Below, in pieces: positions 12,701-44,700 of a stretch of DNA of 64,000 bases. The notes under the pieces were generated by a model that was not told the origin of the DNA, did not search any database, and saw only the letters and a program-made list of their open reading frames with translations. The stretch spans positions 6,069 through 70,068 of the forward strand of contig MNCI01002529.1 of assembly GCA_015680685.1 (NCBI GenBank), written 5' to 3'. This DNA comes from Gnetum montanum. Taxonomy: Eukaryota; Plantae; Gnetophyta. Position 1 is the first letter of the stretch. Each line of letters begins with the position of its first letter. The translations under genes were made by a program, and so were the position numbers.

Positions 12701-15700
12701 GATCGTTGTCTTCTCACTTGGAGCTAGGGAAGTGCAAAACGTATGGTTTAACTCTTAGTGAGACATATGATTAGATGATGTGATTGGCTCTAAGTGTTCT
12801 ATCGGTAAACATGGTGAAAATGAATATAAATCCTATTACTAAAAACAAAGAAAATGTAAAGCTATTCTATCCTACTGGCGATAAGTATTCGGTCCTGGCT
12901 TTCTGTACACACCTTAGGCTACTATAATTGTTATTGGGATTACTAAGTAACTCAACTACTGAGTTGTTAGCACTTGTCAACTATTGCATCCGTTCTCATG
13001 GGAGGAGTTGCGGTGGGCTTGAAATCCATGTAGTCCAACAAGGCCGAAAGACTGGATGGATGGTTGATTGAAATTTTTAGGGAGTATGAGGATCTCGTGG
13101 GATCCAATTTGCTGGATGCATACAATAGTATGCTCACTTGGCAGTAGGTTAGGGGGAAAATCATTTGCTCAAGGGTGTTGCTGCTTTTCAAGGTCCCAAA
13201 CTTGATAGCTCCAAGGCATTTTCGACCCATCAAGGTCTGCAACACGTTGCTACATGTTTTCTCCAAATTGTTGGTTGGATGCCTTGTGCCACTAATGGGG
13301 AAGTTGGTTGGGGAGCATCAGGTGGGGTTCGTTAAGGGTTAGTACCTGCAAGACCAGGTGTTGCTCTTGCAAGAGATCTTACACTCAGTTAAGATTGCTA
13401 GATTTTGAGACATGTGCATCAAACTGAACATAACCAAGGCTATGACATTGTGAGTTGGACGGCACTTAGGATGGTGATGATGGAAAAGGGGTTCGATGCA
13501 AAGTTTGTCAATCTTTGCATTCAAATGCAACGAAGTGGCAGGTATTCCCTTGACATTGATGGGAGGCTATGTGGGTTCGTGAGAACAAGATGTGGACTGA
13601 GGCAAGGGGATCCATTGTCACTGCTCCTGTTTATCATGGTCATGGACTTGTTCAAAGGCTATTGCCTTGACGAAGGTGTTCAAGTTCTGCAGGTTGCTGG
13701 AGTGCATAGTGTGGTAGCCCATTACGTGGATGATATGATGGTGTTTTCTAGGGCTGTGGTGCCATAGGCTGTGGCCTTGTTATTGGCAATGGAGAGGATG
13801 TAGCGGGAGGTAGGCCTAGAAGTCAACAAAGGAAAATCAGCCATTTATTGCACCCACATGGAGGGAAGGGTGTAGACCAACATTATATAGACGTTGGGCA
13901 TCCTACTAGGCCAAGCGCATGACACTTATCTAGGAATGCCTATTTTTGATTGGAATAGGCAGAGGACTTGGCAGGGACTGATAAAGCAGGTTTAGCAGTG
14001 GACCACACTTTGGACTAGCTACTTTCTGTCTAGGAAAGGGAAGATGGTATTGGCTGTGATGATATTGATGGCAATTGCCTGGTTTATAGTGTCCATGGCA
14101 ACACCTTCGGCCATGGTGGTGCAAAGAATTGATAGCATTGTGAGGGAGTTCGTGTGGTCAGGGGGTAAAGGGGGTAGGAAGATGCACTTGGTGTCATGGA
14201 TGGTAACAATGTGGCCCAAACTAGCGAGGGGCATTGGTATTCTGGGGCTTCGAGACAAGATGGCTTTGGGCACACACCATCTACTGAATAGGTACATGGC
14301 ATAGGTTGAGGGGGTAGCACCATGGGTGCAGATGCTACGGTAGAAATATTAGTGATGGGAGGTTCATCGGGAGTGCTCCCAAGTCTGGAAGAATTTCTGC
14401 TGCCATGCTGTTATGGTGGAGTAGCTCGGATTATTGGCGTAGTACCCAAAGGAACTGGTTAAATTTTGATACCTACAGGTAGAGGGTTGGGCAGCAATTT
14501 GGAAGGGTCGTTTCCCTGAAAAGGTCACGATGTTTGGATGGTTGTTGAAACACGAGGCATTCCCAATGAGGGCCACATTGAGAGAGAGGGGGATTAGGTT
14601 GGAAGTTAGTTGTCCACGCTGCTAGGAGGTGCCTGAAACATTGCATCATCTCATTTTTGGGCGTAGGTTCTCTCAAGAGGTGTGGCTGGTTGCAAATATC
14701 TCCCCCAGCGCAAGTTTCCATAGGGACTTTTTGCACCTTGCTACATTGTGGGTCCTGTGGAAATGTAGGAACTCTCTGATTTTTCGGGGACAACCACTTC
14801 CTACGGCCATGGCAGTGGTCAGAGAAGCATGTGGGCTATGGAAGGAGGCCACAAAGGCCATGGAGCAACACCTACTTTTTGAACCATCATGAACATAATT
14901 CTCTAAATTGCCTAAATTATGGGTGTTGGTTGCACGGATGGGGTGGGTGGAGATGCTCAAGTGCATGGAGGGAGAGCCGAACCTGCCTACTTAGCAGTTC
15001 TACGATAATTGGGTGGGAGACACTACACAATATAGGGGTAGGAGGATTGAAATCATAGTGCAAATGTTGGTTGTTTACGTTGGGGGTGGAGGACATAGGG
15101 GAATAATGGCCTTGGTTGTGAGGGCATAGGATGACGTGAGGGAGTTTTTCACAGGACACATTCCCAAGACTGCTAGGGGGGCACATTTGGAAGTTTGGAC
15201 TACGAGGGGTCTGGAGAGATGCAGCGCTCTTGGTGGAGTAGTATTTTGTGCAATCCAGGTACCCCCACAAACTGGTGGGGTGCATTTCACTTTTCTCAAG
15301 CACCTTTGGTAGGGCTCCCCAGTAAACCTGCCCCATTTTTTTGGGAATCCCTTCGTAGGAGGCGATTGGGGTGGCACCCTAGGGTGATCCTCGCACTATG
15401 GTGTGGGGGTGTGTCGACTATTCACCTGGTGCCAATGATTGTTTACCAAAGAAGGCAGCGCCAAGGGTAGTCTACCAGGGCACAAGTGCAGCATAATCGG
15501 GGCCCCAAGGTGGAGGGCATAGGGGCGGAAATGTCCATAGCCATGGAGGAATGGCTATTGGAAGAGTGCTGCTTGGCGGCCGAGCAGGCACAGCTGGAGG
15601 AGCAGGTGCAGTGGTAGCTCAAGTGGGAGAACATGCTGCAGGAGGCCTGAAGAGCAGCAAATGAGTTGTGCCTATAGGACCTCAGGTGCATGGAGGTGGT

Positions 15701-18700
15701 GATATTAGAGCACTGGACAGGATTGGCACAGCTTAGAGTAGAGAACCAATGACTGGCACTTGGGCTGGGATTGACAGGACAACAGATTGTAGTTGGCACA
15801 GATGCCTTAGAGACCTTGGCTGCGGCTGAGAGTCTGGGGTTTGGGTCGTAGTTTGTCGAGATTGTGGGATGCAGTAGTTTGGGGCTAGACGTGGGTAGGT
15901 AGTGCTATGGCCCCGTCGATAAGGGAGGGGGTGTCCTAGGCATTCCGTGGTGCATGTTGCATGTATGTCCCCTACTATTGGAAATAGGGGTTGAATATAT
16001 GGGGTGATGGTACTAGGGTTGTGTGAGAGGGCTACGCTGTGCAGGTGCGTAGGTGATCATGTGGTACGTTGCAGGTGACCGTTGTGTCACGTGGATGGGT
16101 TGTGTCGACTCCAGTCGATGATCTTTGTGTACATTTGTACATTATTTTTCTAGAATAAAATCGCTCGATTGTTTTCCAAAAAAGAGAAAAAAAACTCAAC
16201 TACTAAGCAAATCAAGTAAAGTCACTACTGGGTTACCAAACAACTACACTTTATGCTCAAAACCAATCGTACGTATTTTGCCCATATTAATAAACAATGG
16301 AATAGTAAATGACTTAAGAAGTGTAAATGACAAAGTAAAAGTAAAAGACATAGGAGTATAAATCTATTCTATGTAAGATGTTGCAATGATGAAGAACAAT
16401 CTCAATTTTTATTAGTGGTAATGAATTGTGTCTAGGAACAATTCACTTGAATAAAAATGTTGTACAACTATAATATGCCACATAGTAGGCATTCACAAAT
16501 AACTCTAAATTCACGAAAATAAATTGCAATACTTTTGCTAAAGGTTGGCAAAAAATGTTCCTTTGATACGATGGTAGACTCGTATTTATAGGCATGACTA
16601 TGGCCCACTACATCATATATTGAGCTACAATATCATATCTATGATATTGTAGTCGTTTACATCAAATGTTTTATTAATCTTCAACTTCTACAAATATCCT
16701 AAAATATTCCTTATATGGACATACATGAAATGATGCTTTAGAATCCATTATCCATTCATCAGATTGACTAAACTCACTTCTACACAAAGTATTATCAAGA
16801 GTGATCAAAGTTACACCAACTTCACCATTACTTTGATTACTTGATGATTCTTGGGAAGTAGCCTCCTTTGCTTTGCTCCTTTTCTCCTAATCATGATAGT
16901 TTCTTTTCAAATGACTAGGCTTGTGAAAATACCAACAACCTCTCTCTTTGCTTTGTGAACATGGCCTACTCTTGCTTTTGGCATCATCTCTGCTTCGAGT
17001 TGCTTGCTGTTGTGATCTACCTCGATTTTCAATGTTTAAAGCCTCTTTTCTAGATGATGTTGATTGCATAGATGCCTTTCTGTTTTTAGCATCCAACAAG
17101 GCTACCACACTAGATTTTGCCACAATAGTGCCAAGATCCAGTGTTGCCTATGCTACACTAATTGTTGTAACTATTGTTTCCCAACTCTTTGGAAGAGACC
17201 AACAACAAGGATTTAACCTCATCATCCAATACTACTTGCAGTGCTTTCAGTCCTAGTATAAGGAATCCACCATGGTGCTCTGGGTGAGCACTTATAGTCA
17301 AAGATCCATTCATCATATCTTTTTCCTACTATCACGTGCGTAATCACACTTATCAAATAAAGCTCCTACGCTATTGTACGATGCTATTGTATACTAATAT
17401 ATCCACATATATTTGTGGTATGTAGAGATTTCATGTTTCAGTGTGAAAAACAATTGTTAACTTCAAAGAGGTGCTAAGCCATTGTATTATTGGCCTTCAT
17501 CTTGAACTTGAATAATATTCTCATTTCATAAATTTTGTTTGCCCTTGATGGCTATTCATACAACTGATTAACTTTTTCTACAAGCCTTTTGCTATACTCT
17601 TAGCAATTAGTGAGGTTTGATCAAAGAGAGAGCTTTTTGATTCAACTTATCCCACTCTTTTTGGAACATGTTTTGAGGCTTCCTTTTTGCCTCCTCCGTG
17701 ATGGGAGGTTCACATTCTTTCTGATATAGAATATCTGTCATTAGAATTTTCCAAATCTGCTAATACACTACTATCTTTGTCAACCATCTTCAATACACTA
17801 CCAGTAATCTATAGGAAACCTTGCTTTGATACCACTTGTTGTGCTTAAAAATTAGGACTGAAAAATAAATTCACTCATGCAACCATTGACAACAGAAAAT
17901 ATAAGACGAGACAGATTTACATGGGAAAACCCCTCAAGGTGAAAGGAAATAACCACAGGAAAGTAGGCAGATTATTTTCTTCTTGAGAAATGAATTTCTT
18001 GCTTCATCTATTACCTCCCTCCCTCTCCTTCAAATAACCTTCAATCCCATAATTTTAGACATTTAATCAATAGATTAGGCAGTTAAAGATAATGATCAGC
18101 CTAACTGAATATCAGTGACTGATAACTTATTAGTCACATCTCATCAATCTTACTGACTTAAACACAGCAAAGAAGAAACTAATTACAAATTTCTTGATTG
18201 GAGATTAAAGAGAGAGAGAATCAAGGAATAGATTTTAGTTCATGGTTCAACAAGTAGGAAAACCAGAAATTAGATGTTGCACATTAATAATCTTGTTTAA
18301 ACAAACAATTGGCCTGCAAGCTCAATAATCATGAGGAGCAATAACTCATAAATCAAATATTGAAACTCTAATGGAAGGATCAAAACAAGTGCAGCCAACA
18401 TCAATCAACAAACAATGATGAATAATGTTAACAGATAATTTAATAGCTTTTTAAAATATTAGTATAGATACGGTATTAGCTTTTCTGCCTTGGATTTTGC
18501 TTATGCTAATAAATAAATGAATTTTGATTTTGCCAGATCTCAGGTTCAATTTCTTCAGATCAGAAAATTGATAATTATAAGACATTCAACATAATATCCA
18601 TTTTTGTTCTTTCTTTTTGTATTAATAACAGATCATTTCTAATTTACCAGTAATAATTATGTAGTTGTGCTTCTCGTTGCAGCTGCATCCCTTCTTTTGA

Positions 18701-20750
18701 ATTATATCATAAGATGCAAAGAAAGAGGTTTCAAAATGAAAACATGATAAACTGTAAGTCTAGGACATAAAACCAAGTAAAACACCTTCTCTTTTGGGCC
18801 ATTAATGATGCAAAATTTTCTATTTGATATTCATGACTTATTATTGCATCATTTGATGCCATGCAACCTTTCTACATCTATGGAGGAGCAACTTATATTC
18901 TACTAGCTGATGAAACTCTAAAGAATCATGCATAAAAAACATACAGAACATTCCCCATGATCATTACTTAAAAACAACACAACCATGATAGCCATAGTAT
19001 TCCTGATTTATGGGCCAGGTTCCTTCCACTTGATTTATTGGTTAAGTTTCTCAGCAGTGCATGTGTATATAGTTTTAAAAGAATCATTTATGCTACGCAA
19101 ACATGCTTGTTTCAGTCTTTGAAGCATAACATAACATCAATAAGAGATTTATGCATGACTGAAAATACAATCCTGGATCTCCACAGTTTACTAGTTAAAC
19201 AAATACATGGGAGATTAATGAAAATGGGTTTATTCATATTCTGAAGTTGGTCAAGTTTAGAAGAATTTTTTATGAGTCCCTCTCAGTATGTGAAGGAATG
19301 TGAATAAGCAGGTCATGGGTTTGCGATAGTTTTTTTACTTATTAGACTGTAATATTGAAGGGGAGAAGGGATAACAATTACCACTGAGAATTTAAGAGCT
19401 GTTATAATAGTTTCCAGATGTCTTTAAAACCTAGGTGGAGCATTTTCCATTAGTGATGAATATTCAGTATCACATTAACTTTATACTAGGTGCCACTATT
19501 CCAAATGAATGTGCCTATAGTATGTTGTTAATACAAGGGGGAGAGCCTAGTAGGTAGGTAACTGAGCTATTCTCTCAAAGTTTTATTAGAAAAATCATTT
19601 CTGGTATTTTGTTTTTTTCCAGAGGGTAATGTTAAGTCTACCTACGACACACCTCTAGGTTGGCAGCATAACAAGTGCAAAGGATGCAAAGGGTGCTAGT
19701 ATTGAACTTTGAACCTACTACCTTGATTACAAGGCTGTGCAAGTGTAGGACCCCTAATAACCACCTTTTAAAAGTCAGTATAATTTTTTTTTTTGTTTTC
19801 CAGTCCTCTAAAAACATAGGATTATACTTGCATTAGCAACTAATAAGAATGTGACTCATAATGATGGGATGATTATAGGGCCTATGTACCTCATTCCCTC
19901 ATTAGACTTAACAAGTTATTGATAGAATTAGACTTTGCCAATTCTCATAATCCCAAGGATTGATGCATCTATTGCATATCATCTATTTGTAGTAGTACTA
20001 TGATACCTTAAAAACTAGCTTTGTCCAAGGTGATTGCTAATACTTTGCATCACTTGCGAAGCTAAAAACCATCAAACATTTGTGTGACTCACTTGTTTCA
20101 AATTTTATTTATAAGCAGCAACAATGAATGTGGTTGGATGTACTCCTAGTCCTCCACTATAATTCTACCATACAAGATCATTTAGTCTATAATATGCTTC
20201 AAACAATTGTTGGGAACAACTTTGCCCCTGCAATGTGGCATTGCATTCACACATTAAGGGCCATCCAACTCGAAGAATCTGGTTATCATTTGGCCATGAG
20301 TGAGATTATCTTTAGGTTTTAAACTACACAAACAAAGTTTGGCTTAACCATCATTTTTGGACTATACCTCGATATAAGCCCAAGATAGGTGACCAGGGAT
20401 CATACATGAGGTGGGTACACACTTACGAATGACACCTGCATCATTGAGAACCTTCGGGTATTGTGCAACTCAACCCCCTTGGGTCCAATAGTTTAGGATA
20501 TTAAGTCAAAGCAACCATGTGCATGGGTAGGGTTGAATAGTGGTGCTTATCTCCACATCTAGGGCAGGGTAAATTTAAGTTTGAGAGAAGACGAAGATAC
20601 TGAAATAAATCTAAAATTATAATTATCAACACAGTTCATGGGAGTTGGGATTTAACAATTTTTCCCTTTCTTCTCAGCCTATGACATTTTTCATGCTCTT
20701 CAATGTCTGTAATTGGGAGATGAATCTTGGAAAGTAAATTACCAGCCTTT

Positions 20751-20784
<34 letters not shown>

Positions 20785-23700
20785 GTAACTGTTCTTGTTA
20801 TTCTCAGGCCAAAACAGTGAATGGGTAGTCTTTAATATCATTTCCAGAAAACAGAAAAAAAGAAACAAAGGGAAAATTCTATATGTGACTATTATCATTA
20901 TCATTATTACCATTCCCTATGAAATCAGAAAACAGTGAATAGTAAATAACACCCACACTTCCAGACCATTCAGGACCAGGTTCTCCTCATGTAGGAGGTG
21001 CTTCACTCGCTTCGAAGTTCGGGTTTCCCTAGGCTTTGCCTCAAGCTTGACATTACTAAGGCATACGACACTCTCAGCTGGGAGGCATTGCAGTCCATTA
21101 TGCACCTGAAAGGGTTTGATCAGCAGTTTATCCAGCTGTGCATTCACATGCAGTCCTCGGCCGATTTTTCTTTCGATGTGGGGGGGCGGTTGTGGGGCCT
21201 CTCCTCTCCAGGAAGGGGGCTGAGACAAGGGGACCCGCTCTCACCCCTTCTTTTCATCATCGCCATGGACTTAATGCAGCACTACTGCAGCACATTCAGG
21301 GTGGATGGTTTGGACATCGTCGGGGTGGCATATTGGGCCGAACACTATGCAGATGATACAATGCTGCTCAGTCGGGCGGCGGTCCCACAGGCACGATGCA
21401 TCAACGTTGCTCTGTCCCACCTGGCTACTGAATTAGGGCTGGAGATTAATCGGACCAAATCTTCAGCTCATTTCATTAATGTTGATGAGCAAATTAAAAA
21501 TCGGGTGGTGCAAATCCTGAACATTTTACCCAAGATGGGCAATGACACCTATCTGGGCATCCCCCTCTTTCGGTGGGGGCGAACCATGTCATGGGGACCG
21601 CTATTGGAAAAAATTGAGAGAAGAATGGGCCACTGGGCAAATCGATTCCTGAGCCGCAAAGGATGCCTGCTTGCGGCAACGGGGATCCTCATGGCAATTG
21701 CCCGATTCGTGGTGGCCGTTGCCACCCCCCTAGCGCCATCATCAATGAAATTAACATGCTGGTCCGTAGCTTCATCTGGGAGGGGGGCAATTGGGGGGGG
21801 GCAAGATCCACCTGGTCAGTTGGGAGCGGGTAGTGCACCCCCGGAACGCGGGTGGATTGGGCATCATGTCCTTCGAGGATGAATTGATGCTAGGACAACA
21901 ACGGTTGGTGCTTCAGTTTATGTGCTCACATGGAGAACTGATCGAGTGGATCCACATCATGAATGCAAAATATCTACGTTGGGAGGTGGAAGCGCGGGAT
22001 TCTAGGCCTTGGCAGGCGCTGTGCCGGCATGCTCGTGCAATGCAGATCCGCGGGTGGTTGGGTCTCGAGCCGCGCACCCTGTTAGCCGCCAAGTACTCCC
22101 AAATCGCCGGCTGGCAATAGATTTGGAAGGGTTGGCTACCCGAAAAAATAAATTTTTTTTTCTGGTTGGTTCAATGGGACACGCTACCCGTGCATGCCCT
22201 CCTATGTTGGCGCGGGATCTTACAGCACGACACTTGTCCCACATGCGGCGCGGCGGCAGAGATAGTTCAACACTTTGCGTACAACTGTGTGTGCATGCGC
22301 ACCACATGGCGCGCGACAGCGGTGATCCCTCATGTGCCTCACCGGCGATTCTTGGGCCACACTACTTTTATGGGTAGCGTGGAAAGCAAGGAATCACACT
22401 GTTTTCCTGCAGAAACGGCTCCTGCCCCCCAGCGGTTGGTCCTCTAGGCTCTCCATGCGTGGAAAGAAATCGAGGCGACGATGGGAATCACGCCTACATT
22501 TGAGCTGGACTGTGCCACGTTTCGGGAGGACGAAGAGCTCTGGCAGATGGTGACACAATGCGGCTGGTCTGACCCTTTGCAGTGGCTGGTCGGGGACCCA
22601 GATCTGGCAGACGACGCATTCTTCTCCAACTGGGCCGACGACCGCACCTTTTTTTGAGGGCGCGAGATTCTGATCATCGAGTCCTCAATCGCCAGCTGTT
22701 TGGGGGCCCAGATCGTTGGGGAGGTCATTCTGCCGTCCACCCGCGGCTTGCAGGACGTAGAAATGTTCTTCGACGGGCTCGTACCTCGAATCAGGAGCTG
22801 ACAGGTACCTAGATCTTCCCTGCCCTGTCTCTAGGCCCGGGTAGCAGATTTGGTGGACAGATTTTTTGTCCAGTCTGGCAACGGTTGCAAGCTCCAGGGC
22901 CTACACTTTGCTTTTCTGCGTTGTCTGAAGTTAGGTTGCCAGGTCAACCTCCCCTGCTTTTTTCTGAAGGCCTTCCTGCTCAAATGACGTGGCCGCCATT
23001 CTGGGCTAATTCTTGCCTTGTGGTAGGGGGTAGAGGGGGGGCAGCACCCGTTGTCTTCTGCCCCCCCGCGGGGGTCCCTTGGATTGCCCCCCTGTTGCAA
23101 GCCCCTAGGGCCCTGCAGTCTCGCCCGGCCAAGGGAGCCACTGGTCCCTTTGGGCTTCAACCTTCACGCGGGGCCGGTGGACCCAACGGGAGCGGCACCC
23201 CCTGCTCGCCTTGACAGACTAGTTTCCCCCCCACTGGAGACCTTTGGCCATAGGAGTTGGCACGAAGAGCTATGGCAAGCCATGCAGAGGGCTGCAGACG
23301 AGGCGCGGGAGGCTGAGCGGCGGGAGTGGGAAGCCAAATGGCATGAAGCCCTTGCGTAGGCCCAGGCCGACCTGGAAGCCCAAGTTTCGGAACGAGAACA
23401 TGAGCAGGTGAGGCAGCAGGACCTCATGGTCGAGGCTGCCAAGGCCCGCTTAATTGACGAAATTCGGGCCCAAGTGTGGGAAGAGTTGATTCAGGAGGAC
23501 TCGGCCCAGAGACAACGTCAGCAGGTGGAGCAGGCGAAGCAGGAGCGGCTTCAAGAGGAGGAGGATCAACGACAGCGGCAGCTCGATCGGGCTCACGAGT
23601 ACAACGCCCATCAATGGCTAAGAGGGGGGCGGGTCCTTGGCATCAGCTGTGAGAGCTCCTGGGGTGAGCTTAGGCACCATATCCGCCGGACCTCGGTGCG

Positions 23701-26700
23701 CTTCCATCCGGATGCAGGTGCCTTGCAGGCGGATCGGAATTGGCGGGAGTCGGCCATGCCGGGTATCTAGCAGGCGGCCAGTTTCATGGACACAGAAGAC
23801 CACCGGAACACTCTGGATCTTCTCCATGAGCTAGAGCGCCCTCACTGTGCCGTTGACAGCTTTCGACGAACCCCTAGGGGGGGGGGGTTTTGGCCCCGGG
23901 TCATGGGTGATGCTTACCCCTCCCCCCGGGCCGGTGCTGCTTCTGTGTCCCCCTGCCCTCCCTCCCCACGCTGTCGATCATTGCTCCCCCGTTTCCTTGC
24001 TGGTCTGGTTCCCCCATTGTTTTTTGGGGGGGCCTCTTCCTTTTTTGGGTGGGGGGTGGGGGGAGGGGGGGCGCCCCCTTGTGGGGGGGGTGCACACCCC
24101 CCNNNNNNNNNNNNNNNNNNNNNNNNNNNNNNNNNNNNNNNNNNNNNNNNNNNNNNNNNNNNNNNNNNNNNNNNNNNNNNNNNNNNNNNNNNNNNNNNNN
24201 NNNNNNNNNNNNNNNNNNNNNNNNNNNNNNNNNNNNNNNNNNNNNNNNNNNNNNNNNNNNNNNNNNNNNNNNNNNNNNNNNNNNNNNNNNNNNNNNNNNN
24301 NNNNNNNNNNNNNNNNNNNNNNNNNNNNNNNNNNNNNNNNNNNNNNNNNNNNNNNNNNNNNNNNNNNNNNNNNNNNNNNNNNNNNNNNNNNNNNNNNNNN
24401 NNNNNNNNNNNNNAAAAAAATTTAGAAATCTAATTTTTGGGAGCAGACAAGTGGCAAAATTCCATGTGCTCATGTGCAATATGGAAAGGAGAAACAACAA
24501 TAAAATCTGATATACGCTAAGTTTGAACACCATGATGGATTAACATGGTTCCAAACTTTGACATCTTTGTTAATAAAGTTTCCAGCCTGTAATGTTTTCA
24601 CATTGAGAGAAATGTAGGCTTTGAACAAGGGACCATTTAACAATGATTTGAGATATGACAACTCTCTTAGAAACCTCTCAAAATTGATCTAAAAATGATC
24701 AACAAAACATAACATGTGCACTTAACAAAAGACACCAAAAATCCTAAATATGCATAGCTTTATTTTTAATATTAAAATGAGTACTCAATGGACACTTTGG
24801 CCATCCAGCTGCGCTACACCAAGTTTTTCCAACCCTACAACATCTTGTAGCCCACACAAGAGATCACCAGCCTTGGATAGAATGATGTGGGGCATTTCTT
24901 GTATAAAACAAAAATGATCACAAAAACAAGAAATACCAAGTGCACATGACACAAGAAAATGCTAACTCATAAGCCCAAAACATGCATACCAAAAATCAAA
25001 TCCAAGACACATGAGAGACTTCATGCATGACTCACACTTCATAAGAAATCCCACATGCCCTCATGAAATAATGCTCACTTTTCCAAGCCAATACAACTTC
25101 AAACACCTACTAAAAATTTTGTACAAGGGTTTGAAATATACAACTTTAAAGTTGAACTTGACCAATTTTGGGAGCAAGAAGATACCTCAAAGTTGGGTTG
25201 TTGTCCAGCTAATAGCCTCAAAAAATCAGCTTCAAATTGCAGATTCAAGGTGATGCCAAAAACTTCTCACAAAATCAGAGAAAACGGTCCCTTGAATCAG
25301 CCAAACAGTCCCCAAAAATCAGATCCAAAGCCTCCAACAGCAGCAAGAAAATCCACCTTCCAAGAGCCCACAAGAACACTCAAGACAGCCGAAGAGATGG
25401 CCAAGAACAAGCAAGGAACAACCACTCTTCCTCTCCTCTCCTCCACTCCTCACCCCTCCAACTAGCATAGTCTCCCCTTTCTTGGCCAGAAGTGAAAATG
25501 AGAGCAAAACACCCCCTTGATTTATAGGATGGAGGAGACCCTAGGGCTTTGATAAAGACTTATGCACAAAAGTTTATACAATGGACAAGGAGTAGACAAT
25601 CCATTTTTCAAAAATCCTTTTTTTTATTCATGACATCATTGCTACTTGACTTGGACAAGCAAGCTCTCATAAGGAAGTGGACATGTGAAATTGACAACAC
25701 TCAAGAGAGTCACATGGCCCCTATTAAATGAGTCATTGGTCCCTTTTCCAGCCATTAATATGAACTGGACAATTTTCATATATAAATAAAATAGATTACT
25801 TTATAAATTTCATTCTTCTTAGAATGGATGATACTGCGAATGTTCTCTCATTTTGATGTATTTAATAAAATTGATTTTAAAAGTAGATATCATCATATTA
25901 AAAGTGAAGAGGAGGTGAATGGAAAACTTGTTTTAAAATCCTTGATGCTTTCCATTTAAATGGCTTGTGATGTCATTTGTGTTAACCAATGCTTTTACAT
26001 TTTGTGGTTGATGTAGTGTGTATTGAAGGAATTAATTGGAATATGTTGCATTGTGCTTTTTTAATAATATTTTGCTTTTTAGCAAGAATAAATATGAGCA
26101 CTTTGCATATTTGACTTTGGCTTTCAAAAAACCTAATGAAAACCAACTAATTATAATCGTCAAGCAGTGTTAATTCTTGATAGGTGATGTCAGCTACTTC
26201 GGTTGTGTGGCATAAAAGATTGACATATGGATGGCACCTTCAAAGGTGAACTGAATCTTGGAGTGGCCAACTCCAATGAGTATTCATGATATCATAAGCT
26301 TCTTTGGACTAGCAAGTTTCTATCGTCAATTTATTTGAAGATGTGTGGTTATAGGTTTTCAATGCTCAGTTTGTTGAAGAAGGATTGATTGTTTCATTGA
26401 TTGAAACCAAGGAATGATAGTTTTGAAGAGTTGAAAAAGAATTGACAGCAAACTGGCGTTGGCCTTGTCTGAGCTTTGAAACCTTTAGAGGAGTGTTCTT
26501 TAGGATTTTACTGAACTAGCTATTAGAGGACTGTTGTTCAGGATCGAGAGTCAATTGCTTACTTTTCTGAAAAATTGAATGACAACATGAAGAAATATAG
26601 TGTTTATGTGAAAGAATTATATGTAATTTTGCAAGCACTTATATACTGGAGGGCACTATCTTCTTTCTAAAGAATTTTTGTTGCTAACTAATCACGAAGT

Positions 26701-29700
26701 ACTTAATCTTCCTTTGCAAGTTATGAATATTCATATCTGATTTGAACTATGAGTGTTAACCTAGCTGTAAGACTCTTGACATGGAAACCACAGGTAACAG
26801 GTTCAATTCTAATGGGCAATGCTATGCTATGGAAAATTTTGTACAAGGAATTTCTGATGTTGCTGTGGCTCAACAGATCCAGAGGGTCTTAGTAGATGTA
26901 ATTAAATACATTTTGTTTGAGTTTCATAAATCCATTCTTATCAAGAAATGAGCTGGAGATCAGTTCATTTGAGGCTTGGAACATATCTTACACCGTCAGG
27001 GTTTTAAGGCCACCGTTGGCTTTTACTTAATATACACATAAGTCAGCTACTACCTCTCACAAGATCTAAATATTCCATAAAATAATCATGATGTTTGTTT
27101 TCAAGTTCTATCGTTGCTTTTATAATGTGCTAATGAAGTGAATATTACCGTGTTCTTCTCAGATGGAAAAGTAATTTGATAGTTTATGTATGTCAAATTG
27201 CACTACGAATTAACAAGCATTAACGTTGTTGCAATTTTACTGTCATAGCTTTCATAGGATCTGCCTTTTGATTATTTTAGTAGAACTGGGGTTTCTCACT
27301 AGGGAATCATTCTAGCATACCCAGAGCTGACACAATTTAGACAGGAACTAAGTGTTCAGACTTCAGATGCAGTAATTTTTTTGGCGTGCTCTTACATTTA
27401 ATGGTAAATCAAGAACTGTACTTTGATGTTGTTTATAATAGCATTAGTGAAGTTATTCTTGTTCTGTTTGACTGAGTCAGGTTGGTATATATATGCCTTC
27501 TTATGATATTATACGGAATTTTCTTGAGGAATTTTCATATGTGAAGGCACCTCAGTTAGCAGCATATTCTCCGTTAATTGCAGCTTCTATAGCACGAGCA
27601 TTGGCATGTATAGTCTGTTCTCCTATTGAACTGGCAAAGACTAGAATGCAGGTTAGCAGCCATTGTTTACTTTCTCGATTCTGTTTTGTTTGATGAAGGC
27701 TGATATTTTCAGGTTATGTTTCACATAAATTTGGCAAATTTTTAAAGATGATGTAATTATGAAAATAATTTTATCCTAAACTTTTGTTGAATTTCTGCTT
27801 GATGATTGTTGGTGCCTAAGACCTTTCAAACTTCAAAATTTTTAACTTGTCGATTGTACCCTCTAGCTTATCAATTTACAGTAAGTAATAGTTTCAAGTC
27901 ATCACTGGATCTATCATCAGCCATAGTTTGATGTATTACAAGAGTTGAGAGGATTTGAATATGTTCAGAGTTGTTAAAGGTCATAAGTTGCTAATTTTGC
28001 TTTAGATATTCAAGTACAATTATTTTTTTTTCAATATTAAAATCAGGATAACTTCTATTATAAAGTGAAATTTCACGTATATTGCTATTTATTGCTGTGA
28101 ATTGTATTGCAATCCCAACTTATATAAACAACGTTAATTATATTTATTCCTTTTATCATAATGTTCATTGTTTGTTGTATACTGCTATGAAGGCTGAGAA
28201 GGTTATTCACTTTGGTAACAAGCCTCGAGGAATGTGGAACACTTTAGCTGATATTTGGTTTTCTGTAAGACGTTCATCGACACAAGCAAATGGTGAGCTT
28301 ATTTCTTTTTGAAAGGAGTAAAGGGCTGTGTTGCTGAAACTTTTATTTTGGAAGAGGTCAGGTTTCAGACCTAGATCTTTTGTCACTCTGTAATCTAAAA
28401 TGTGACTTCCAGTTATTTATTCCATTTCATCTTCTATGTTTTAAAGCCATCCTAAGGTTTTCTTAGGTTATTTTCAAGAAGAAGCTGTCTTTAACTTACG
28501 TTGAACATGACCAAATCATCATTCAAAAATCTGTTAAGTTAGAGTATAGCGGAATAGTTTATTACTAATAAGCATTGTTGAACTAATTATGCAACTATGG
28601 AGAACAAAAAATTAAAATGCATTTATTAAATTTTTTAAAAAGTGCAATCCAAACGTGAAAGGAGATAATTTTTCCTGGCAAAACATAACCCATCAAGGAA
28701 CTTTGCAATGGCATGATGAGGACATATGGAAAAAAGCAATTAGCCAAAGCTGATAAAACAAAGAAGGTACTCAGCTGAAGAAGTTATCTCAGTAATAAAA
28801 CATGAGCTGAAAGATTCACACAAAGATGTGAAAACAAAAGAAGAAAAGGAACAAATTGCAAAAAAGCAATTCAAAACTGGTCACTCACGGAAGTGAACAT
28901 ACACTGCACTTTTTTTCGAGGTAAGGTTGGGGATATATTATAATACAAAATATACAAAGTCCAGGCCAAAAAAGAGAAAAGGCGGGGTGCGGAGGGATTT
29001 ATCCCTTTCTGGGGGAAGTAACTCCCGTAACAGCTGCAAAGAAGAGGGAGGAATCTCCTTGTGCATAGAGACTTACAACTAAAAAAGACAAGTCATACAA
29101 CAACATTTGAAACAACATATTGGCTCCATCTCATGTCCCTGATCTTCCTGAAAACCGAAAAACCTCATAGATGAGCCTTTGACAAATTTACAAAAGATAG
29201 AGACCATTATGGAAACAACAAATAAATACAATGACATCTAGGCCTCAACTCCTACCGAGTCCCAGTCAATGTGACCCTCGCCTCCTTGGAATTGATGAAA
29301 TATGCCACCTGTTTGAAAACATGGTATTTCTCTTTCTTCTTTTTCTTCTCTGTGTCACTGAGGCCAATTCCCTTGTCTAGATGGCAGGTGAAAGAGACAC
29401 GTCGGATGTAGGCATGAAGATCATCTTAGGAAGCGTAGCACTTAATCTTCATTATCATGTATGGGCACATCTTGTTGGTCTGATAGTCTTTGACATTAGC
29501 TGCATGTTACTTTTGCAGGTGCCTCCTCATTTTTTTCTATTCCTGACATTCAACTTCATGTCTCCTGATTTCCTCCTGCTTCTTCAGGTGAGTCTCTTCC
29601 ACCACCTGTAAGAGCTCTACCTTGATGCTCTTCTGCAACTCATGCTCAATTCTGAAATGAAATTCCATCTGTTGTCTCCCATCTCACCCTAGTCTCTTCC

Positions 29701-32700
29701 TCCTAGATTTGTTGCCCTTTTTTTTGGCCTCCCATTTGAGGTGGATCCATATCCTCTGTGGCAATCATGAGATCAGCCTCTGCTTGTTGCTTCAACTGTT
29801 GTTTGATTTCTGCAACCCATTGCTGAACCTCATGAGTGAGCTTGTTCTTTGCCTGCATATCCAAGAATTCTCCTAGTTTTTCCAACTCTGCTCTACTTGT
29901 GGTTGAGACTAGGTGGCCATATTTGCTCTTTGTTGATCCACCAAGCTGGATGACAAATCCCCATTGTCTACATGCAAGCCCTAAGGCCCCATCTCATCCT
30001 TCGTGTGCACCTCTGTTAGGGCTTGTACTAATAGCAAAGGCCATGGAAGTCCACATCATGGGCTCACCATTCATAAATAGTGGTAAAATCTCAGACTTCC
30101 ACGGTGCAGACAAAATAATCAACTTAGAATGTTTGCTAGTTTGTTACTTTTCTAGGATAGCCCCAAAATTTTTTGGTAAGTTAGATAGTCTCCAAAGTTG
30201 AAGGCATTGCATAAGAGCAAAGTGCATTTCCTGCAACTTATGAGCATTCTCAGACTGCAAAAAAAAATTTCTCAACCAATTTTGCCACTCGCTGCCAAAA
30301 AAGAGGGAATTTGGATCTCGACACCTAGCCTTTAATAGTCCGTGCAACAAAGCCTTGAAAGAAGGGAGTGGCTTTGTGTAAACTGCACCTAGATGGAAGG
30401 ACTACGTCACTGGAGCAAGGGATTCCCAGGAAGTCCCCAATGGCCTCTTTGCTTTGGAGAATGTAGGTCTTGTGAAAGCAAGTTTCATCCCTGTGCCATC
30501 TCAAAAATAATTAGGTGCATTTAACATACATTGCATTATGTAGGTTCAGAGTTGGGACCTTTCACCCGCTAACGAGGATGCCTTGATGCGGTTGGGACTT
30601 GTGGGGGGCCCAGGGGTTTGGGTCCGTTGTCGGTGTGGGGTCAGCTGCCCTCGCCTACGCTATACCTTTGTATAGTTGTTCTTTTTGGGAATAAATTTCG
30701 CTTGATTTTTTCCAAAAAGAAAAGAAAAGAAAAACATACATTGCATTATGTAGTGTCAAGAGTTGAAGTTGTGAAGCAGTAGCTTAACATAATTGAACTA
30801 AAGTTGCAAAGTACTAGCCTAGTTCAGACTTTGGAGAACTTTGTAGTATAATAGAAGATGGTGAAACCAAGCTTTAGTACACATTGACAAATGAGCTACT
30901 TGGGAACCTTTGAGCTTAGTTAAGATGTAGCCTTTAAGTTGCATCACTAAACAATTGGTTACATTATGAAGGATTTGAGCTAGTCAATTTAGCCAAAACC
31001 TCTAATGAACCCCGAAGAAGTTAACAATCTCATAATACAAATTGTGTTATGGATTTGATTAACAATTGCAATATTCTTTTGTTATGAAATTGGTTAATAA
31101 AGAAATTTATTGTTTTAATAAAAATTGTGAACATAATTCTAATCCTATGCAAAGGTTTACTAAGTAAACACTCTTAATCATTCTAGCCTTGTCTCAACAA
31201 AATGGGGTTGGCTACATTATTTAACTTTTTCTATCCATCTCTATTAAGAGATAGATTTTTATCTATTTGCAATTTCTTTAAATAATCTTCAATTGTTTTT
31301 TCCATGTCTTTTTTAACAAGTAAACATTGGTTTATGGAACTTGGATTCATCTATGGATGAAAAATTGATATGGTATTAGAACCAAAGGATTTGATGAGCC
31401 CCGAGTCCCACGGTCATTTCGCTTCGAAGCCGCTTGGTTAGCTAAGCCGTGGTTGAGGTCGTTGGTGGAGGACATTTGGGCAGATTACCGGCCTAGCCAA
31501 GGTGATCCCCGGAATTTCCTTAAGGAGGCCTTGCTTTGTCTGAAGTGGGCCATTCGAGCACTCCCAGTGCATGATAAGTCCTCCTTTTGGATGGGTTAGA
31601 GGACTCTCCGAGATCAGCTTGGTCAGATCCAGGCCAGGCAGGAAGCTGGGGAGGACTTACACGAGGAGGAACAACACACGTTACGTCAGCTTCAATCCCT
31701 TGACTTGGAGGAGGAGACATATTGGTGGCAACGCTCCTGGGTCAGATGGATCTGGGAAGGGGACAGGCAAACAAGATTTTTCTTTGCCATGACTAAGACA
31801 CGTGGGGGGAGCCAACCACGTTGTCTTTGCAATCAGGATGGGGAGACTATTGATGATCCGCAGAAAATTGCAAATGAACTGATGCAGTACTAGGGGAGGA
31901 TCTGGGCCAAACGTCCCACTAGGCCCATCTCGGTCCACGTGGCGTGAGTGTTGAACGAGAGGGACAACATGCGGCTGCTGGCCCCTTTCTTGTGGCAGGA
32001 ACTCACTGCCACTATCAACAGCATGCCAGGAGGAAAGGCACCTGGTCCTGACGGCTGGAGCCTTGAGTTCTTTAAGACGTTCATGGATATTGTGGGACCC
32101 AATATCCTAGATGCGTTCAATCTCATGTTGGCCAAGAGGCAGGTCCGGAGGGAACTCAACTGCTCCTGCATTGTGTGCATCCCGAAACAATCAGATGCAC
32201 ACTGCCCTAAACACTTCCGCACTATCGGTGTATGCAATGTACTCATTCGACTCTTCTCCAAACTGCTGGTGCATAGGCTTGTGGGGATCAACCAGGCGGG
32301 CTTCGTGTAGGGCCGGACCATTCAGGACTAGGTTCTCCTCATGCAGGAGGTGCTTCACTCGCTTCGAAGTTCAGGTTCCCTGGGCTTTGCCTCAAGCTTG
32401 ACATTACCAAAGCATACGACACACTCAGCTGGGAGGCCCTGAAGTCCATTATGCAACTGAAAGGTTTTGATCAATAGTTCATCTAGCTGTGTATTCACAT
32501 GCAGTATTCGGCCGGTTTCTCTTTCGACGTGGGGGGTGGTTGTGGGGTCTCTCCTCTCCAGGAAGGGGGCTGCGACAGGGGGACCCACTCTCGCCCCTTC
32601 TTTTCATCATCGCCATAGACTTAATGCAAAATTATTGCAGCACATTCGAGGTGGATGGTTTGGACATTGCCGGGGTGGCATGTTGGGTTGAACGCTATGC

Positions 32701-35700
32701 GGATGATACAATGTTGCTTAGTCGGGCAATGGTCCCACAAGCACGGTGCATCAACATTGCTCTGTCTCGTCTGGCAGCTGAGTTGGGGCTGGAGATTAAT
32801 CGGACCAAATCTTCAGCTCATTTCATTAATGTTGATGAGCAGATTAAAAGCTGGGTGGTGCAAATCTTGAATATCCTACCCAGGACGGGCAATGACATTT
32901 ATCTGGGCATTCCACTCTACCGATGGGGGTAGAACATGTCGTGGGGGCCACTGTTGGAGAAAGTTGAGAGAAGAATGGGCCATTGGGAAAATCGTTTCCT
33001 GAGCCGCAAAGGACGATTGCTTGTGGCAACGGGGATCCTCATGGTGATCGCCCGATTCGTGGCGGCCGTTGCCACCCCCCCTAACGCCATCATCAATAAA
33101 ATTAACATGCTGGTCCGTAGCTTCATTTGGAAGCGGGGCAAAGGGTGGGGGCAAAATCCACCTAGTCAATTGGGAGCGAGTAGCGTGCCCCTGCAACGCG
33201 GGGGGATTGGGCATCACATCCTTCGAAGATGAACTGATGTTGGGACAGCAATGGTTGGTGGTTCGGTTTATGCGCCCGCATGGGGAACCGATTCAGTGGA
33301 TCCGCATCATGTGTGCAAAGTATCAACGTTGAGAGGCAGGGGTGCAAGATTCTAGGCCCTGGCAAGCGCTATGTCGGCACATGCATGCGATGCAGGCCCA
33401 AGGGTGGTTGGGCCTCAAGTCGCGTGCCCTGCTGACTGCAAAGTACCCCCAAATCGTTGGCTGGTAGCAGATTTGGAAGGGGTGGCTGCCCGAGAAAATA
33501 AAGATCTTCCTCTGGCTGGTACGGATGGACGTGCTACCTGTGCGAGATCTCCTGTGTCGGCACGGGATCATGCAAAACGACACCTGTCCCAGATGCGGCG
33601 CCGCGCCAAAGATAGTCCAGCACTTCATTTACGATTGTGCATGCATGCGTGCCACGTGGCACGTGGCGGCGGTGACCCCCCCGATGTGCCTCACCGGTGA
33701 TTCTTGGGCCACGCTACTTTTATGGGTAGTGTGGAAAGCAAGAAATCACACTGTTTTTCTGCAGGAACGGCTCACCCCCCGGGTTGGTTCTCCAAGCTCT
33801 TTGTGCATGGAAAGAAATCGAGGCGGCGATGGGAATCATGCCAACATTTGAGCTAGAATGCGCTGCGTTTTAGGATGACGAGGAACTCTGGCAGATGGTG
33901 ACACAGTGCGGCTGGTGTGACCCTCTGCAGCGGCTGGTCGGGGACCTAGATTTAGCAAATGATGCTTTCTTTTCCAATTGGGCTGACGACCAGACCTTTT
34001 TTCGAGGGCACAAGATTCTTGTCACCGAATCCTCAATTGCCAGCTGTCTGGGGGTCCAAATCACCGGTGAGGTCATCCTACCGTCTATCCGTGGCCTGTA
34101 GGATGCAAAACTATTTTTCGACTGGCCCGTGCCACGTACAAGGAGCTGACAGGTGCCCCGATCTTCTCTGCCCCATCTCTGGGCCCGGGTAGCAGATTTG
34201 GTGGACAAATGTTTTGTCTAGTCTGGCAACGGTTCCAAGCTTCAGGGCCGACATTTTGCATTTCTGCGTTGTTTGAAATTAGGTCGCCAGGTCAACCTCC
34301 CCCGCTTTTTCTTGGAGGCCCTCCTGCTCAAGCGACATGACCGCCATTCTGGGTTAATTCTGGCCTTGTGGCGGGGGGTAGAGGGGGGGCAACACCTGTC
34401 GTCTTCTACCCCCTCCTCCCCCCCTTGTGGGGCCCCCCCTGGATAGCCCCCTGCTGCTGCCCCCCAGTCCCTACGGTCTCGCCTAGCCAAGGTAGTTGCT
34501 GGTCCCTGTGGGCTTCAACCTTTACGCGGGGCCGACGGACCCAACGGGAGCGGCACCCCCCCGCTTGCCTCGACAGACTGGTTTCCCCCCTGCCGAAAAC
34601 CTTCGGCCACAAGAACTGGCATGAAGAGTTGCGGCAGGCCACGCAGAGGGCCGTAGACGAGGTGCATGAGGCTGAGCGACGAGAGTGGGAGGCTAAGTGG
34701 CATGAAGCCCTTGCATAGGCCTGGGCCGACTTGGAGGCCCAGTTTTCTGAGCGGGAGTAGGAGCGGGTGAGGCAGCAGGACCTCATGGCTGAGGCTGCAA
34801 GGGCCTGGTTAATTGACGAAATTTGGGCCCAAGTGCAGGAAGAACTGAATCAGGAGGACGCGACCCAAAGAGAGCGTGAGCAGGCAGAGCGGGTGGAGCA
34901 GGAATGGCTTTAGGAGGAGGAGGAACAACAGCAACGGCAGCTCGATCGAGCTCACGAGCACAATGCCCGACAATGGCTCAGAGGGGGGCAGTGCCTGTAA
35001 CTCATCCTTGGCATTAGTTGTGAGAGCTCCTGGGGTGAGCTCAGGCACCATATCCGCCGAACCTTGGTGTGTTTTGATCCTAATTGGGGCACCTCGCTGA
35101 CGGATTGGAACAGGTGGGAGTCGGCCATGCAGGGTATCCAACAGGCGGCCAGTTTCATGGACATCGAAGACTACCAGAACACCTTGGATCTTCTCCATGA
35201 GCTAGAGCGCCCTCATTGCGGCTGTCGACGAACCCCTAGGGGGGGGGGGGGGGGNNNNNNNNNNNNNNNNNNNNNNNNNNNNNNNNNNNNNNNNNNNNNN
35301 NNNNNNNNNNNNNNNNNNNNNNNNNNNNNNNNNNNNNNNNNNNNNNNNNNNNNNNNNNCTCGATTTTTCTTGGGTCTGTTTCCTGGTCATAACATGACTA
35401 ATAGGGTGCTGAATATTTTGTGACTTAGGGGTTTTTTGCCCTCCATTGAGGGCCATTGCTGATGGCCCACGATTTGTAATCTCATGTACTATAGTCTTTC
35501 TTTCTCAGTAATATAATCCTGATTATTTTCTCAAAAAAGAAAAGAAAAGAAAAAAGATTTGATGAGAAGTTGTGTTGCGGTGGCAAATGGAGGATCAGGA
35601 GAGCGAGTGGATTATGGACAAGGGTGACCTGGGAGCCTTCAGGTGGGAATTGCAACAATAGATTGGTGTCTCCTCGTTTTTGCATAATGGATCACAAGGG

Positions 35701-41700: not shown

Positions 41701-44700
41701 ACACCAACGCTAGGAGATATTCATTATTGTTTTGTATTTTATTCCTTGCAGAACAAGGATTGCGTGTTCTCTGGACAGGAGCAGGTGCTCAGTTAGCACG
41801 TGATGTGTCATTTTCTGCTATTTGCTGGGCTACTCTGGAACCGGTAACTTTTTTGCTTAGATGACGCTTAGACATTTATAGAATCTATATATGTATGTAT
41901 TGGAGAAAGACTGGGAAATACATTGCAGCATAGAATTGCAAAATACAAGTATACAAAATGGGAGGGTTTACCATATAATGTATTTTCTTTGATAATATTA
42001 GTGATTTTGATATTTTGGCAATAACATACATCTGAAAATTTTCTGAATTAATGGGATAAATGGCTGAAGGCAATGACGATGGTATACCTTGAAATTCCTT
42101 TAAAATCTCTCTGCTAGACAAGTGTAACCAATGAGGTGTTAGCTTTGTGCTAAAGGTCTTGATATGGAAGTCCCAGGTCACAGATTTAATTATATTGGGC
42201 AACACCGAGTTATGTACAAATTCTTGTAAAAAGAATTCTGGAATTGGTGTGGTTGAACAATCTAAGAAGGTTGTAGTGGACGTAATTAAATACAGTCAAT
42301 TTCAGTTTCATATATTTGAGAATATTTTCTGTTATGTAGTAATTGTTATATGTGTTACTGAGGCATAGCTTACTTGGTTGGAGCATGTGGCTTGTGGGTG
42401 TGCAAGTCATAGGTTTGATCGCAATGGGCTATGCCAAGACTTGTCACCTAGTGTCATTATAAAGATGCACATTCATGCTGTGGTGTTAGGCCAATAGCCA
42501 ACCATGGAAATCATCATCAAATCCTTAACCTACCTTAATAACTTAGTCCATGTTGTTGGGATGCAGTCACTATAATGAAGATGAGCAATTTTCCTATGTG
42601 GCTGTGATAAAAGCAAACATTGAAGCCTGCCAGTATGTCTACTAGGCCATTGGTAAGAACATCTATCATAAATTTGACAGCATCTTCTAATGGAATTTGT
42701 CATACATTATGACCTTTTGGAAAGGGGAATGTACAGAAATGAAACTCAAGTGTATGATTGTGTCCATAGAGACCCTTGGCATCTATTGGACAAAGTCAAC
42801 TTCATCCCATTTTTTCACTGGAATTTCTTTGTATAATTTTTTTTTGGAAGTTGAGGTTTGGGGGAAGGATATGGTGACTATGTAAATTCTAGTTTTCTTA
42901 TTTATGTTATTGATCAAATGACACATCATCGGGAAGGAATGCAATGGTTGAAACAAAACTGCTTTTAAATGTTGCAGTTTGGTCTAATAAGAAGCAACAG
43001 ATGATTAAGTAGAAGAGAATCAAATTTAAAAGCAGTAGAACATCAAGTATGCTGACGATCAGATTGTCAGGTCAAAATAGACTTGATGACACAACTCTGA
43101 GGAAATGGCCTAGCTAGGTAGAAAGCTAATGCAAAGAAAAGACAGAAGGCATATGAAAATATAAGATGATGATGACGTTTTGAAGAACATCCTTTGTAGG
43201 ACCCCTAGTAACCACCCTCTAAAATTCAGTACAATTTTTTTTTTCTTCTACAATTCTCTTAAAACATGAGGCTATGCTTACACTAGCAACTAATAAGGAT
43301 GCGGCACATATAATGATGGGTTGATTACAAGGCCTACATACCTCCTTCCCTCATTAGACTTAATAAGTTAGCGATGAGATAAAACCTTAGCACTCCTCAT
43401 AATTCTAACGATTGATGCATTAATTATGTATTGTCTATCTTTAGTAGTACCATGATACCTTAAGGACCAGTGTAGCCAAGGGTGATGGGTAACACTTTCC
43501 ATCACTTAGGAAGCTAGATACATCAAACATTTGTGTGACTCACTTGTTTCATGTTTTATTTTACAAGTAGCATCAACAGAGGTGGTTGGATTTGAACCTA
43601 ATCCTCAACTATGTTTCCACCAAACACCTCAACTATGTTTCCACCAAACAGGATCATTTAATCTATAATGGGCTTCAAATACTAGCTGGGAATTAAAAAT
43701 ATATAGGTTTCAACAACTTTGCCCATGCAATGTTGCATTGCATTCACACATTGAGGGCCATCCAACTTAAAGATTCCAGTGACCATTTGGCCATGAGTTG
43801 GGTTATCTTTGGGCTTTAAACTACATACACAAGGCTCGGCTCAACCATTATTTTTGGACTACACTTGGATATACCCCCTAGATAGGTGACAGGGGATTGT
43901 ACGGTAGGTGGGCATACACTTATGAATGGTGCTTACATCATTGAAAAGCTTTGGGTGTTGTGCAAGTCAACCCTCTTGGGTCCAATGGCTTAGGAAATTA
44001 AATTGAAGTAAGCATATATGTATGGGTAGGGTTGGATAGTGGTGTTCATCTCCACATCTAGGGTAGGATGTATGCAAACTAAGTGAACAATGCAACCCAT
44101 CCATTCAAGATATGAGGATCAATACATTATTATTAATATGATTAGTAAATGATCCTTACAAATATTACCTACTTACTAGCTATGAATTTAGGTGAATTAC
44201 TTATTCTAGGGCCTAAAGGTCTCATGTGGGTTTATTTTATAGAAAGCAAATAAACATACATGATCAGCCATATATTTTCTTTTGTTTCTTTGCACAACTA
44301 AAAAAATATATCTACTGATAAATAAATGGGGTTAGCATATTAAAGCAACAATAAATAAATAGGGTGTGGGTGAGTATGAGGTTGTTAATGGTCTTTGATA
44401 GTTAGGTCATGGGGAAGGAGCGGTAGGCATCTGATCACAAATCTATTTTGTGTTGGGTTGGAACTATTCAAGGGCAGGCTCCGAGATCTTTCCATTTCAA
44501 GTGCATGTGGTTGGGTAAGCCTTGGTTGAGGCTGCTGGTACAGGATATCTGGTAGGAGTACTCAATCACCCATGAGCCGAGGGTTTTCCCGAAAAGAGGG
44601 CTAAAACTATTGAAGCAAGGAATCAAGGCCAGAGCCTTGGAGGAGAAATACGGTTTCAAGGCATACAAGGCATGGTTGCTGATTATTCTCTAAGAGGTTC

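Follow-up and report, generated by a model that had tools for sequence, protein, structure and literature searches.

The window, by which we mean the whole 64,000-nucleotide stretch of Gnetum montanum DNA analyzed here, is plant-type nuclear DNA with a GC content of ~33% outside repeats. It contains remnants of five LINEs, of which c1, c2, c3, and c5 lie on the plus strand and c4 on the minus strand. c2, a younger 5'-truncated LINE (20961..~24420, with an N gap crossed at the 3' end), and c3, also 5'-truncated and ending in an A-rich tail (31399..35555), belong to the same J-bearing family and are 82% identical in DNA over 2955 bp in a window self-blastn. c1 (12964..16194), which is complete at its 3' end, and c5 (~44680..48370, with approximate ends) are copies of sister LINE families. 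A reverse transcriptase (RT) of the non-LTR type followed by zf-RVT is present in c2 (RVT_1 E 4.5e-15, zf-RVT E 6.5e-11), c3, and c1, and the closest database relatives are plant L1 ORF2 proteins with 27–37% identity. c4 has lost the RT/zf-RVT part and was assigned to LINEs through downstream homology. The combination of 5' truncation, target site duplication (TSD), and A-rich 3' tail was found in c4, c3 (11-bp TSD at 31388 and 35556), and c1 (TSD at 12951 and 16195), and no TSD was found for c2 or c5. All copies in the window are 5'-truncated, and no full-length or intact element was seen among them.

c4 (28909..30522) is a decayed, 5'-truncated copy nested in an older repeat. It is bounded by a 13-bp TSD with one mismatch (28896..28908 and 30523..30535 on the plus strand), and its flanks, 28576–28908 and 30732–31172, match an uninterrupted copy of the repeat at 40294–41057. 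Its own TSD, its A tail, and the interruption of the older repeat identify c4 as a separate 5'-truncated insertion. A sequence-only reading that preceded this analysis had likewise taken it for an independent copy; the label "antisense" given there holds merely in the sense that c4 was inserted in the opposite orientation. On the minus strand, c4 comprises the C-terminal part of a Transposase_32/PMD-like domain with one frameshift (30093..30510), a helical, coiled-coil-like segment spread over two frames (29468..29900), a decayed J-domain-like region with two in-frame stops (29228..29467), in which HLD replaces HPD (29375–29383), the end of the frame (29207–29209), and a 3' UTR with a short poly(A) tail (28910..29206; T7 on the plus strand at 28910–28916). 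The insertion with its flank is also present in run X6 contigs of organism B at ~99% identity. We consider c4 older than c2 and c3 because its CG o/e is lower (0.18 versus 0.68 and 0.61), and its mostly single-locus depth at an 80% identity threshold indicates that it has few close relatives. c4 itself is a non-functional, dead copy, whose HLD and stops most plausibly arose by decay once it had inserted. A TAXi_N match in the c4 linker (E 0.006) was treated as noise.

Other repeats accompany the LINEs. Two dispersed repeat families with 71–83% identity are represented by 19744–20568 with 43195–44067 and by 28576–31368 with 40294–41097; c4, c3, and a short insert lie within or adjacent to the latter. 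This insert (30545–30735, plus strand) is 190 bp long and A-tailed, has a ~21-bp duplication, and shares its target site with c4, its immediate neighbor. Over its final 65 bp it resembles the 3' end of c3 at 77%; it is either a LINE remnant reduced to a very short 3' piece or a SINE mobilized by these LINEs. A 1.3-kb dispersed repeat pair (24520–25796 and 49916–51241), ~81% identical, is possibly LTR-like, and an integrase (rve) fragment on the minus strand (11831–12187, E 1.5e-7) is an LTR retrotransposon remnant, copia-like by eye. Three tandem ~45-bp units (47787–47923) occupy the part of the c5 tail where the J-bearing copies have the coiled coil and J.

Domains of the ORF2 extension

The frame of c2 runs ~470 codons past zf-RVT, interrupted by seven stops and, immediately after zf-RVT, by a brief compensated shift. 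The extension consists, in this order, of a ~190-residue Transposase_32/PMD-like domain (22448..23035), a proline-rich linker, a coiled-coil-like stretch (23234..23572, delimited by sequence composition), and a J-like domain (23633..23848), all on the plus strand. Apart from the compensated shift, c2 has zf-RVT, the PMD-like domain, and J in a single frame, and in c1 the frame passes from zf-RVT into the PMD-like domain without a frameshift. Two in-frame stops upstream of J, at 22799 and 23357, are common to c2 and c3. A single deamination separates each from a sense codon, and at these two positions c4 appears open; parallel decay is the likely explanation, and the shared stops would also allow for a split frame in the family.

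The PMD-like domain is present in all five window copies. Pfam gave no match to it, either in the window copies or in the proteins P0001–P0004, and its identification as an RNase H was rejected, as there was no RVT_3 match. Relatives are few: four weak matches among 1.84 billion representatives, comprising one unnamed JGI fragment, one Taxus protein, and two Ginkgo proteins, the Taxus and Ginkgo proteins being matched by the c2 domain in phmmer at E 1e-4 to 9e-4. The PMD-like assignment is a lead that runs through the Taxus protein, which is ~25% identical. Atlas feature scores of 0.88 for Transposase_32 and 0.85 for ATHILA were obtained via P0002 only and lie below the tool's naming bar, as do the predicted-model TM values via P0002 of 0.79 to a Transposase_32 cluster and 0.71 to a cluster with 14% PMD. 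The JGI fragment P0001 (86 residues, on a 13.4-kb contig) is ~40% identical to the C-terminal part of the PMD-like domain, closer than the gymnosperm matches, and may come from a related LINE of another plant.

The complete tail was not encountered elsewhere. Protein databases yielded no LINE with it, which, given word-limited searches, is weak evidence, and none of 120 database L1 ORF2 proteins matched the extension profiles (best E 0.8). Among viral contigs, 0 of 213 stretches were confirmed, the Rfam search found nothing, and two metagenome loci, L001 and L002, were rejected as chance 7-residue matches in bacterial DNA.

The J-domain-like region

The sequence-only reading had proposed that c4 conserves the 3' domain of c2 and c3 at the protein level, while its DNA does not visibly align with theirs, and both halves of this proposal were borne out. 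The minus-strand translation of 29467–29228 is exactly as quoted there, and the window self-blastn (word size 9, E ≤ 1e-4) gave no match between c4 and c2 or c3, yet the protein similarity is beyond chance. The J-like region of c4 is 29–30% identical in amino acids to those of c2 and c3, with local scores of 67 and 64 versus 21 ± 4 for shuffled sequences (reached in 0 of 2000 shuffles). With c2 as the query, c4 is the best non-self segment of 2550 overlapping six-frame segments of the window and scores 70, versus 45 for the best segment outside the three copies. A profile built from c2 and c3 alone finds c4 at E 2.9e-9 (25.9 bits) and nothing else under E 6, and the three-way alignment of c2, c3, and c4 has 21 invariant columns, some of them before and after the J core.

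The homology had been placed at 29230..29520; it stands but extends further, to 30510, and is stronger there, where the PMD-like part of c4 is 38–44% identical to that of c2 and c3. J is thus the least conserved part of c4. In tblastx, c4 matches c3 at E 8e-21 and c2 at E 2e-16. The helical segment of c4 shows 25% identity to c3 over 96 codons, the start of the J region included; its register relative to c2 was read by eye, and the coiled-coil profile of c2 and c3 did not detect it.

The H[P/L]D motif that had been proposed to unite the copies applies to two of the three: c2 has an intact HPD (23705–23713) and c4 has HLD, but c3 reads FDPN, so that its J-like region (35004–35225, plus strand) carries DPN instead of HPD. 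The leucine codon of HLD is CTA in a C-T-A-G context; a single C-to-T change at a CHG site separates it from CCA, in agreement with the one deamination noted earlier. c2 and its family carry HPD where J-domains have it, between helices II and III.

On sequence comparison, the 3' domain shared by c2, c3, and c4 is J-like. The c2 region, which has one in-frame stop, aligns with positions 5–63 of 63 of the Pfam DnaJ profile (PF00226) at 15.9 bits (E 0.014), under the gathering cut-off of 27.8 bits, and Pfam DnaJ gave no match for c3 or c4; because the scores fall below the cut-off, we file the region as J-domain-like and not as a member of PF00226. The main support comes from the fact that two diverged copies separately point to the same fold. 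All 13 PDB matches of c2 are J-proteins (best E 0.23), dnj-12/DNAJC8 being the closest, whereas all six PDB matches of c4 alone are Sec63 (E 0.065–0.071, 17.1 bits), in an alignment that spans the Sec63 J-domain and sets HLDK opposite HPDK. With a three-copy profile, J-proteins take the first 21 of 38 PDB rows (best E 0.01); Rab-8A rows in this search were treated as noise. For the c2 stretch, Atlas ranks a J-domain cluster first (0.84), which counts only as a lead. Translated by eye, the consensus letters at the loose ends of other copies give RYHPDG in organism C; ahead of the domain they give CPYLI, a match to CPYMI of c4 and DPYEI of Sec63. AlphaFold produced two low-confidence models, with mean pLDDT of 40.8 (three-row alignment) and 40.4.

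Selection and copy number in the J-bearing family

Ka/Ks ratios were calculated by the Nei-Gojobori method with bootstrapping over codons. Between c2 and c3, Ka/Ks of the J region is 0.28 (bootstrap 0.13–0.67), and the other domains give 0.26 (RT), 0.20 (zf-RVT), 0.18 (PMD-like), and 0.16 (coiled coil). For the J region of c4, the values are 0.49 (0–1.08) against c2 and 0.72 (0.18–1.51) against c3, with a saturated Ks of 1.3–1.8 and both intervals spanning 1. Thus, the Ka/Ks check suggested by the sequence-only reading gave a clear answer for c2 and c3 and, with saturated comparisons, none for c4.

Variants in sequencing data of the family point in the same direction. The variant table holds the best-supported 40 of 103 variants, of which 38 inside the domain were used and two upstream rows were left out. 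In this set, 25 of the 38 common family variants are synonymous, versus 12.7 ± 2.8 expected under a null matched for base change and CG/CHG/CHH context (0 of 20000 simulations reach the observed count). When sites with c2 as the odd copy are removed, 23 of 31 are synonymous. In the other plus-strand frames, 6 and 10 variants are synonymous; in the antisense frame with the same third positions the count is 23, in line with expectation. The sole variant listed in HPD, among the best 40 of 103, is a silent change of the proline at 30–36%. Read depth near the HPD loop is ~1,700 versus 27,300 at the flanking helices, ~15-fold lower, so copies more diverged in the loop are under-sampled. In the J region and frame end of c4, 7 of 17 variants are silent versus 10 that are not, a sample from 1–4 contigs per run that is too small to draw on.

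These data show purifying selection on the J region in the c2/c3 family, a conclusion that does not extend to c4. The earlier claim that the J-like domain is under long-term selection and is not the trace of a one-off 3' transduction is therefore upheld, on evidence from c2 and c3 and not from c4, the copy on which it had been based.

The family is large. At 80% identity, the 273-bp J region of c2 is matched by 1510 contigs in run X1 (organism A), 1204 in X7 (organism C), and 457 in X11 (organism F), and the summed depth peaks at 27,300 where a single locus has ~10, a ratio suggestive of thousands of family copies, with the caveat that depth is not a copy number. A search of sequencing runs listed no RNA holder, a result that is silent on expression. 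RNA run X20 contributes 378 reads to the c2 J region, 171 in one orientation and 207 in the other, mostly less than 90% alike, and c4 received one read each in runs X20 and X17. This pattern fits read-through of many copies and does not amount to evidence of an autonomous transcript.

Origin, possible roles, and known systems

When 24 of the 120 database L1 ORF2 proteins are placed in an RT tree with the four window RTs, the latter group on a branch of their own (100/100), which splits into the J-bearing c2 and c3 (100/99) and c1 and c5 (96/88). c1 and c5 have the PMD-like domain, and profile and Pfam searches detected no J region in either, c1 being complete at its 3' end. Since the c1/c5 families spread without a detectable J, J is not essential. 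From the same position, the same flanking domains, and the shared non-J residues of the three J-bearing copies, we infer a single capture before c4 and c2/c3 diverged. The PMD-like domain tree neither shows nor rejects a c2+c3+c4 clade, leaving an open fork (p-AU 0.42). c4 is of value as a dating point: it places the J module earlier than a deep split between subfamilies.

That c4 and c2/c3 captured J independently, from different host genes, we regard as very unlikely. The best PDB matches do differ, Sec63 for c4 and dnj-12/DNAJC8 for c2, and the PMD-like tree does not force the three copies together; but differences among PDB matches at E near 0.1 are too weak to name a donor, and J sits in the same position after the same domains in all three, with invariant columns that include residues flanking the J core. 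c4 also scores 25.9 bits against the c2+c3 profile and 17.1 bits against the best PDB J-domain, two values from different kinds of search. Still less probable, and largely refuted, is that J is a passenger, a host DnaJ fragment acquired by 3' transduction and carried without function. 3' sequence transduction by LINEs is well established, J-less sister families exist, and the Ka/Ks interval of c4 includes 1. Against this stand the in-frame position of J in the ORF2 extension, the c2–c3 Ka/Ks of 0.28 with 25 of 38 synonymous variants (best 40 of 103), and the retention of J in a subfamily whose synonymous sites are saturated. That the LINE carries a captured, selected J-like domain, taken as a structural claim alone, appears highly probable to us.

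What the module does is a separate matter. J-domains bind Hsp70 through helix II and HPD, and the same elements of the LINE module would be expected to do so. In the model that we favor, a J-like module likely captured once from a host DnaJ gene would be translated with RT, zf-RVT, the PMD-like domain, and the coiled coil as one ORF2 fusion; the tethered J would bring host Hsp70 to the element's own RT–RNA particle, and the benefit would be an RT folded or activated on its RNA. This reading of J as a tethered co-chaperone of the ORF2 protein–RNA particle is drawn by analogy with the duck hepatitis B virus RT, reported to be activated in vitro by Hsc70 and Hsp40 (PMC7396710), and we give it about an even chance of being correct.

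It is possible, if on the doubtful side, that the PMD-like and J parts instead act on chromatin, targeting insertion or countering host silencing by mimicking or competing with plant J-proteins at methylated DNA. Plant J-proteins and PMD proteins are both described in TE silencing and anti-silencing pathways (PMC8616336, PMC6711733): anti-silencing by Arabidopsis SUVH1/SUVH3 needs DNAJ1/DNAJ2 (PMC6711733), the J-protein SILENZIO silences TEs together with MBD5/6 and Hsp70, and TE-encoded PMD proteins have been proposed as counter-silencing factors (PMC8616336). In the LINEs, the domain adjacent to J resembles Transposase_32/ATHILA ORF1/PMD clusters, the two parts are under similar selection, and the family has a high copy number. 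However, the PMD-like assignment is a lead via a Taxus protein at ~25% identity without a Pfam match, and the heavy CG depletion of the copies indicates that they were methylated. A self-chaperone also accords better than a trans-acting suppressor with the usual low abundance and cis action of ORF2p. A counter-defence in which the tail of a high-copy LINE lineage, with a Gypsy-type PMD-like domain, a coiled coil, and a working Hsp70 co-chaperone, would turn the J-protein/Hsp70 chromatin machinery against silencing seems to us similarly doubtful. We consider it unlikely that the J-derived domain has become independent of Hsp70, for example as a helical RNA/DNA-binding or oligomerization module. 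Its strong divergence from canonical J-domains, below the Pfam cut-off, its basic helix II and lineage-specific EL...C.C tail at the end, and the loss of HPD in two of the three window copies would fit such a change, but HPD is kept among the common variants of one RNA run and three DNA/contig runs, where the loop that follows it varies, and the HPD losses of c3 and c4 are in dead copies with many other lesions.

If the co-chaperone model holds, the J-domain would link LINE ORF2p directly to Hsp70. Retrotransposons rarely fix a new domain, and such an event points to a host pressure that the element answers. J-bearing and J-less sister families in one genome offer a natural comparison, which makes testable both the need of a LINE RT for chaperone activation and the role of TE-encoded PMD-like domains. 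In the J-less c1 and c5, the Transposase_32/PMD-like domain, otherwise tied to LTR elements, is kept in the ORF2 frame, an arrangement that looks unreported in its own right.

The full-text literature searched, mainly open-access papers, contained no LINE with a J-domain or PMD-like domain. The terms 'DnaJ' and 'PMD' are absent from the main text of an L1 survey across eukaryotes (PMC5203782), the supplements of which may bear on the matter, and a DnaJ mention in PMC9004415 proved to be a gene name in a table.

The window LINEs are best compared with elements that carry additional domains. In plant L1-clade LINEs, ORF2 can carry an additional RNase H at its C-terminus (Smyshlyaev et al. 2013, cited in PMC5203782 and PMC4686597). 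The window copies resemble these in having RT, zf-RVT, and then a foreign domain at the ORF2 C-terminus, as well as 5' truncation, TSD, and an A-rich tail, but in c2, c3, and c4 the slot is filled by a Transposase_32/PMD-like domain, a coiled coil, and a J-like domain, and the window RTs branch separately (100/100) in the tree with 24 database L1 ORF2 proteins. Lepidopteran R1/TRAS LINEs carry a captured viral SF1 helicase at the ORF2 C-terminus, for which a counter-silencing role has been proposed (PMC4686597); there too the captured domain lies at the end of ORF2, behind a long spacer, whereas the clade, the host, and the cargo differ, that of the window LINEs being a chaperone cofactor-like domain. 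Among plant Ty3/gypsy elements, those that carry additional PMD or AlkB domains (PMC9289625) have likewise captured a host regulatory domain, and these elements and ATHILA ORF1/Transposase_32 (PF03078, PF20167) bear a similar-looking mobile plant domain on a retrotransposon. In contrast to the window LINEs, in which the domain, its family assignment only a lead, lies in the ORF2 frame, those retrotransposons are LTR elements with mostly separate ORFs.

With J-domain proteins such as Sec63, DNAJC8, DNAJA, DNAJ1/2, and SILENZIO, the LINE module shares a length of ~65 residues, a PY-I-LGIS-type start, a basic helix II, and the HPD loop; unlike them, it lies below the Pfam cut-off, is fused to a retrotransposon protein, and has lost HPD in c3 and c4. 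J-domains also exist in viruses, for example in the polyomavirus T antigen. Domain capture at the ORF2 C-terminus is thus already known, and the J-like module, judged from the literature and databases searched, appears to be new as the cargo of a LINE.
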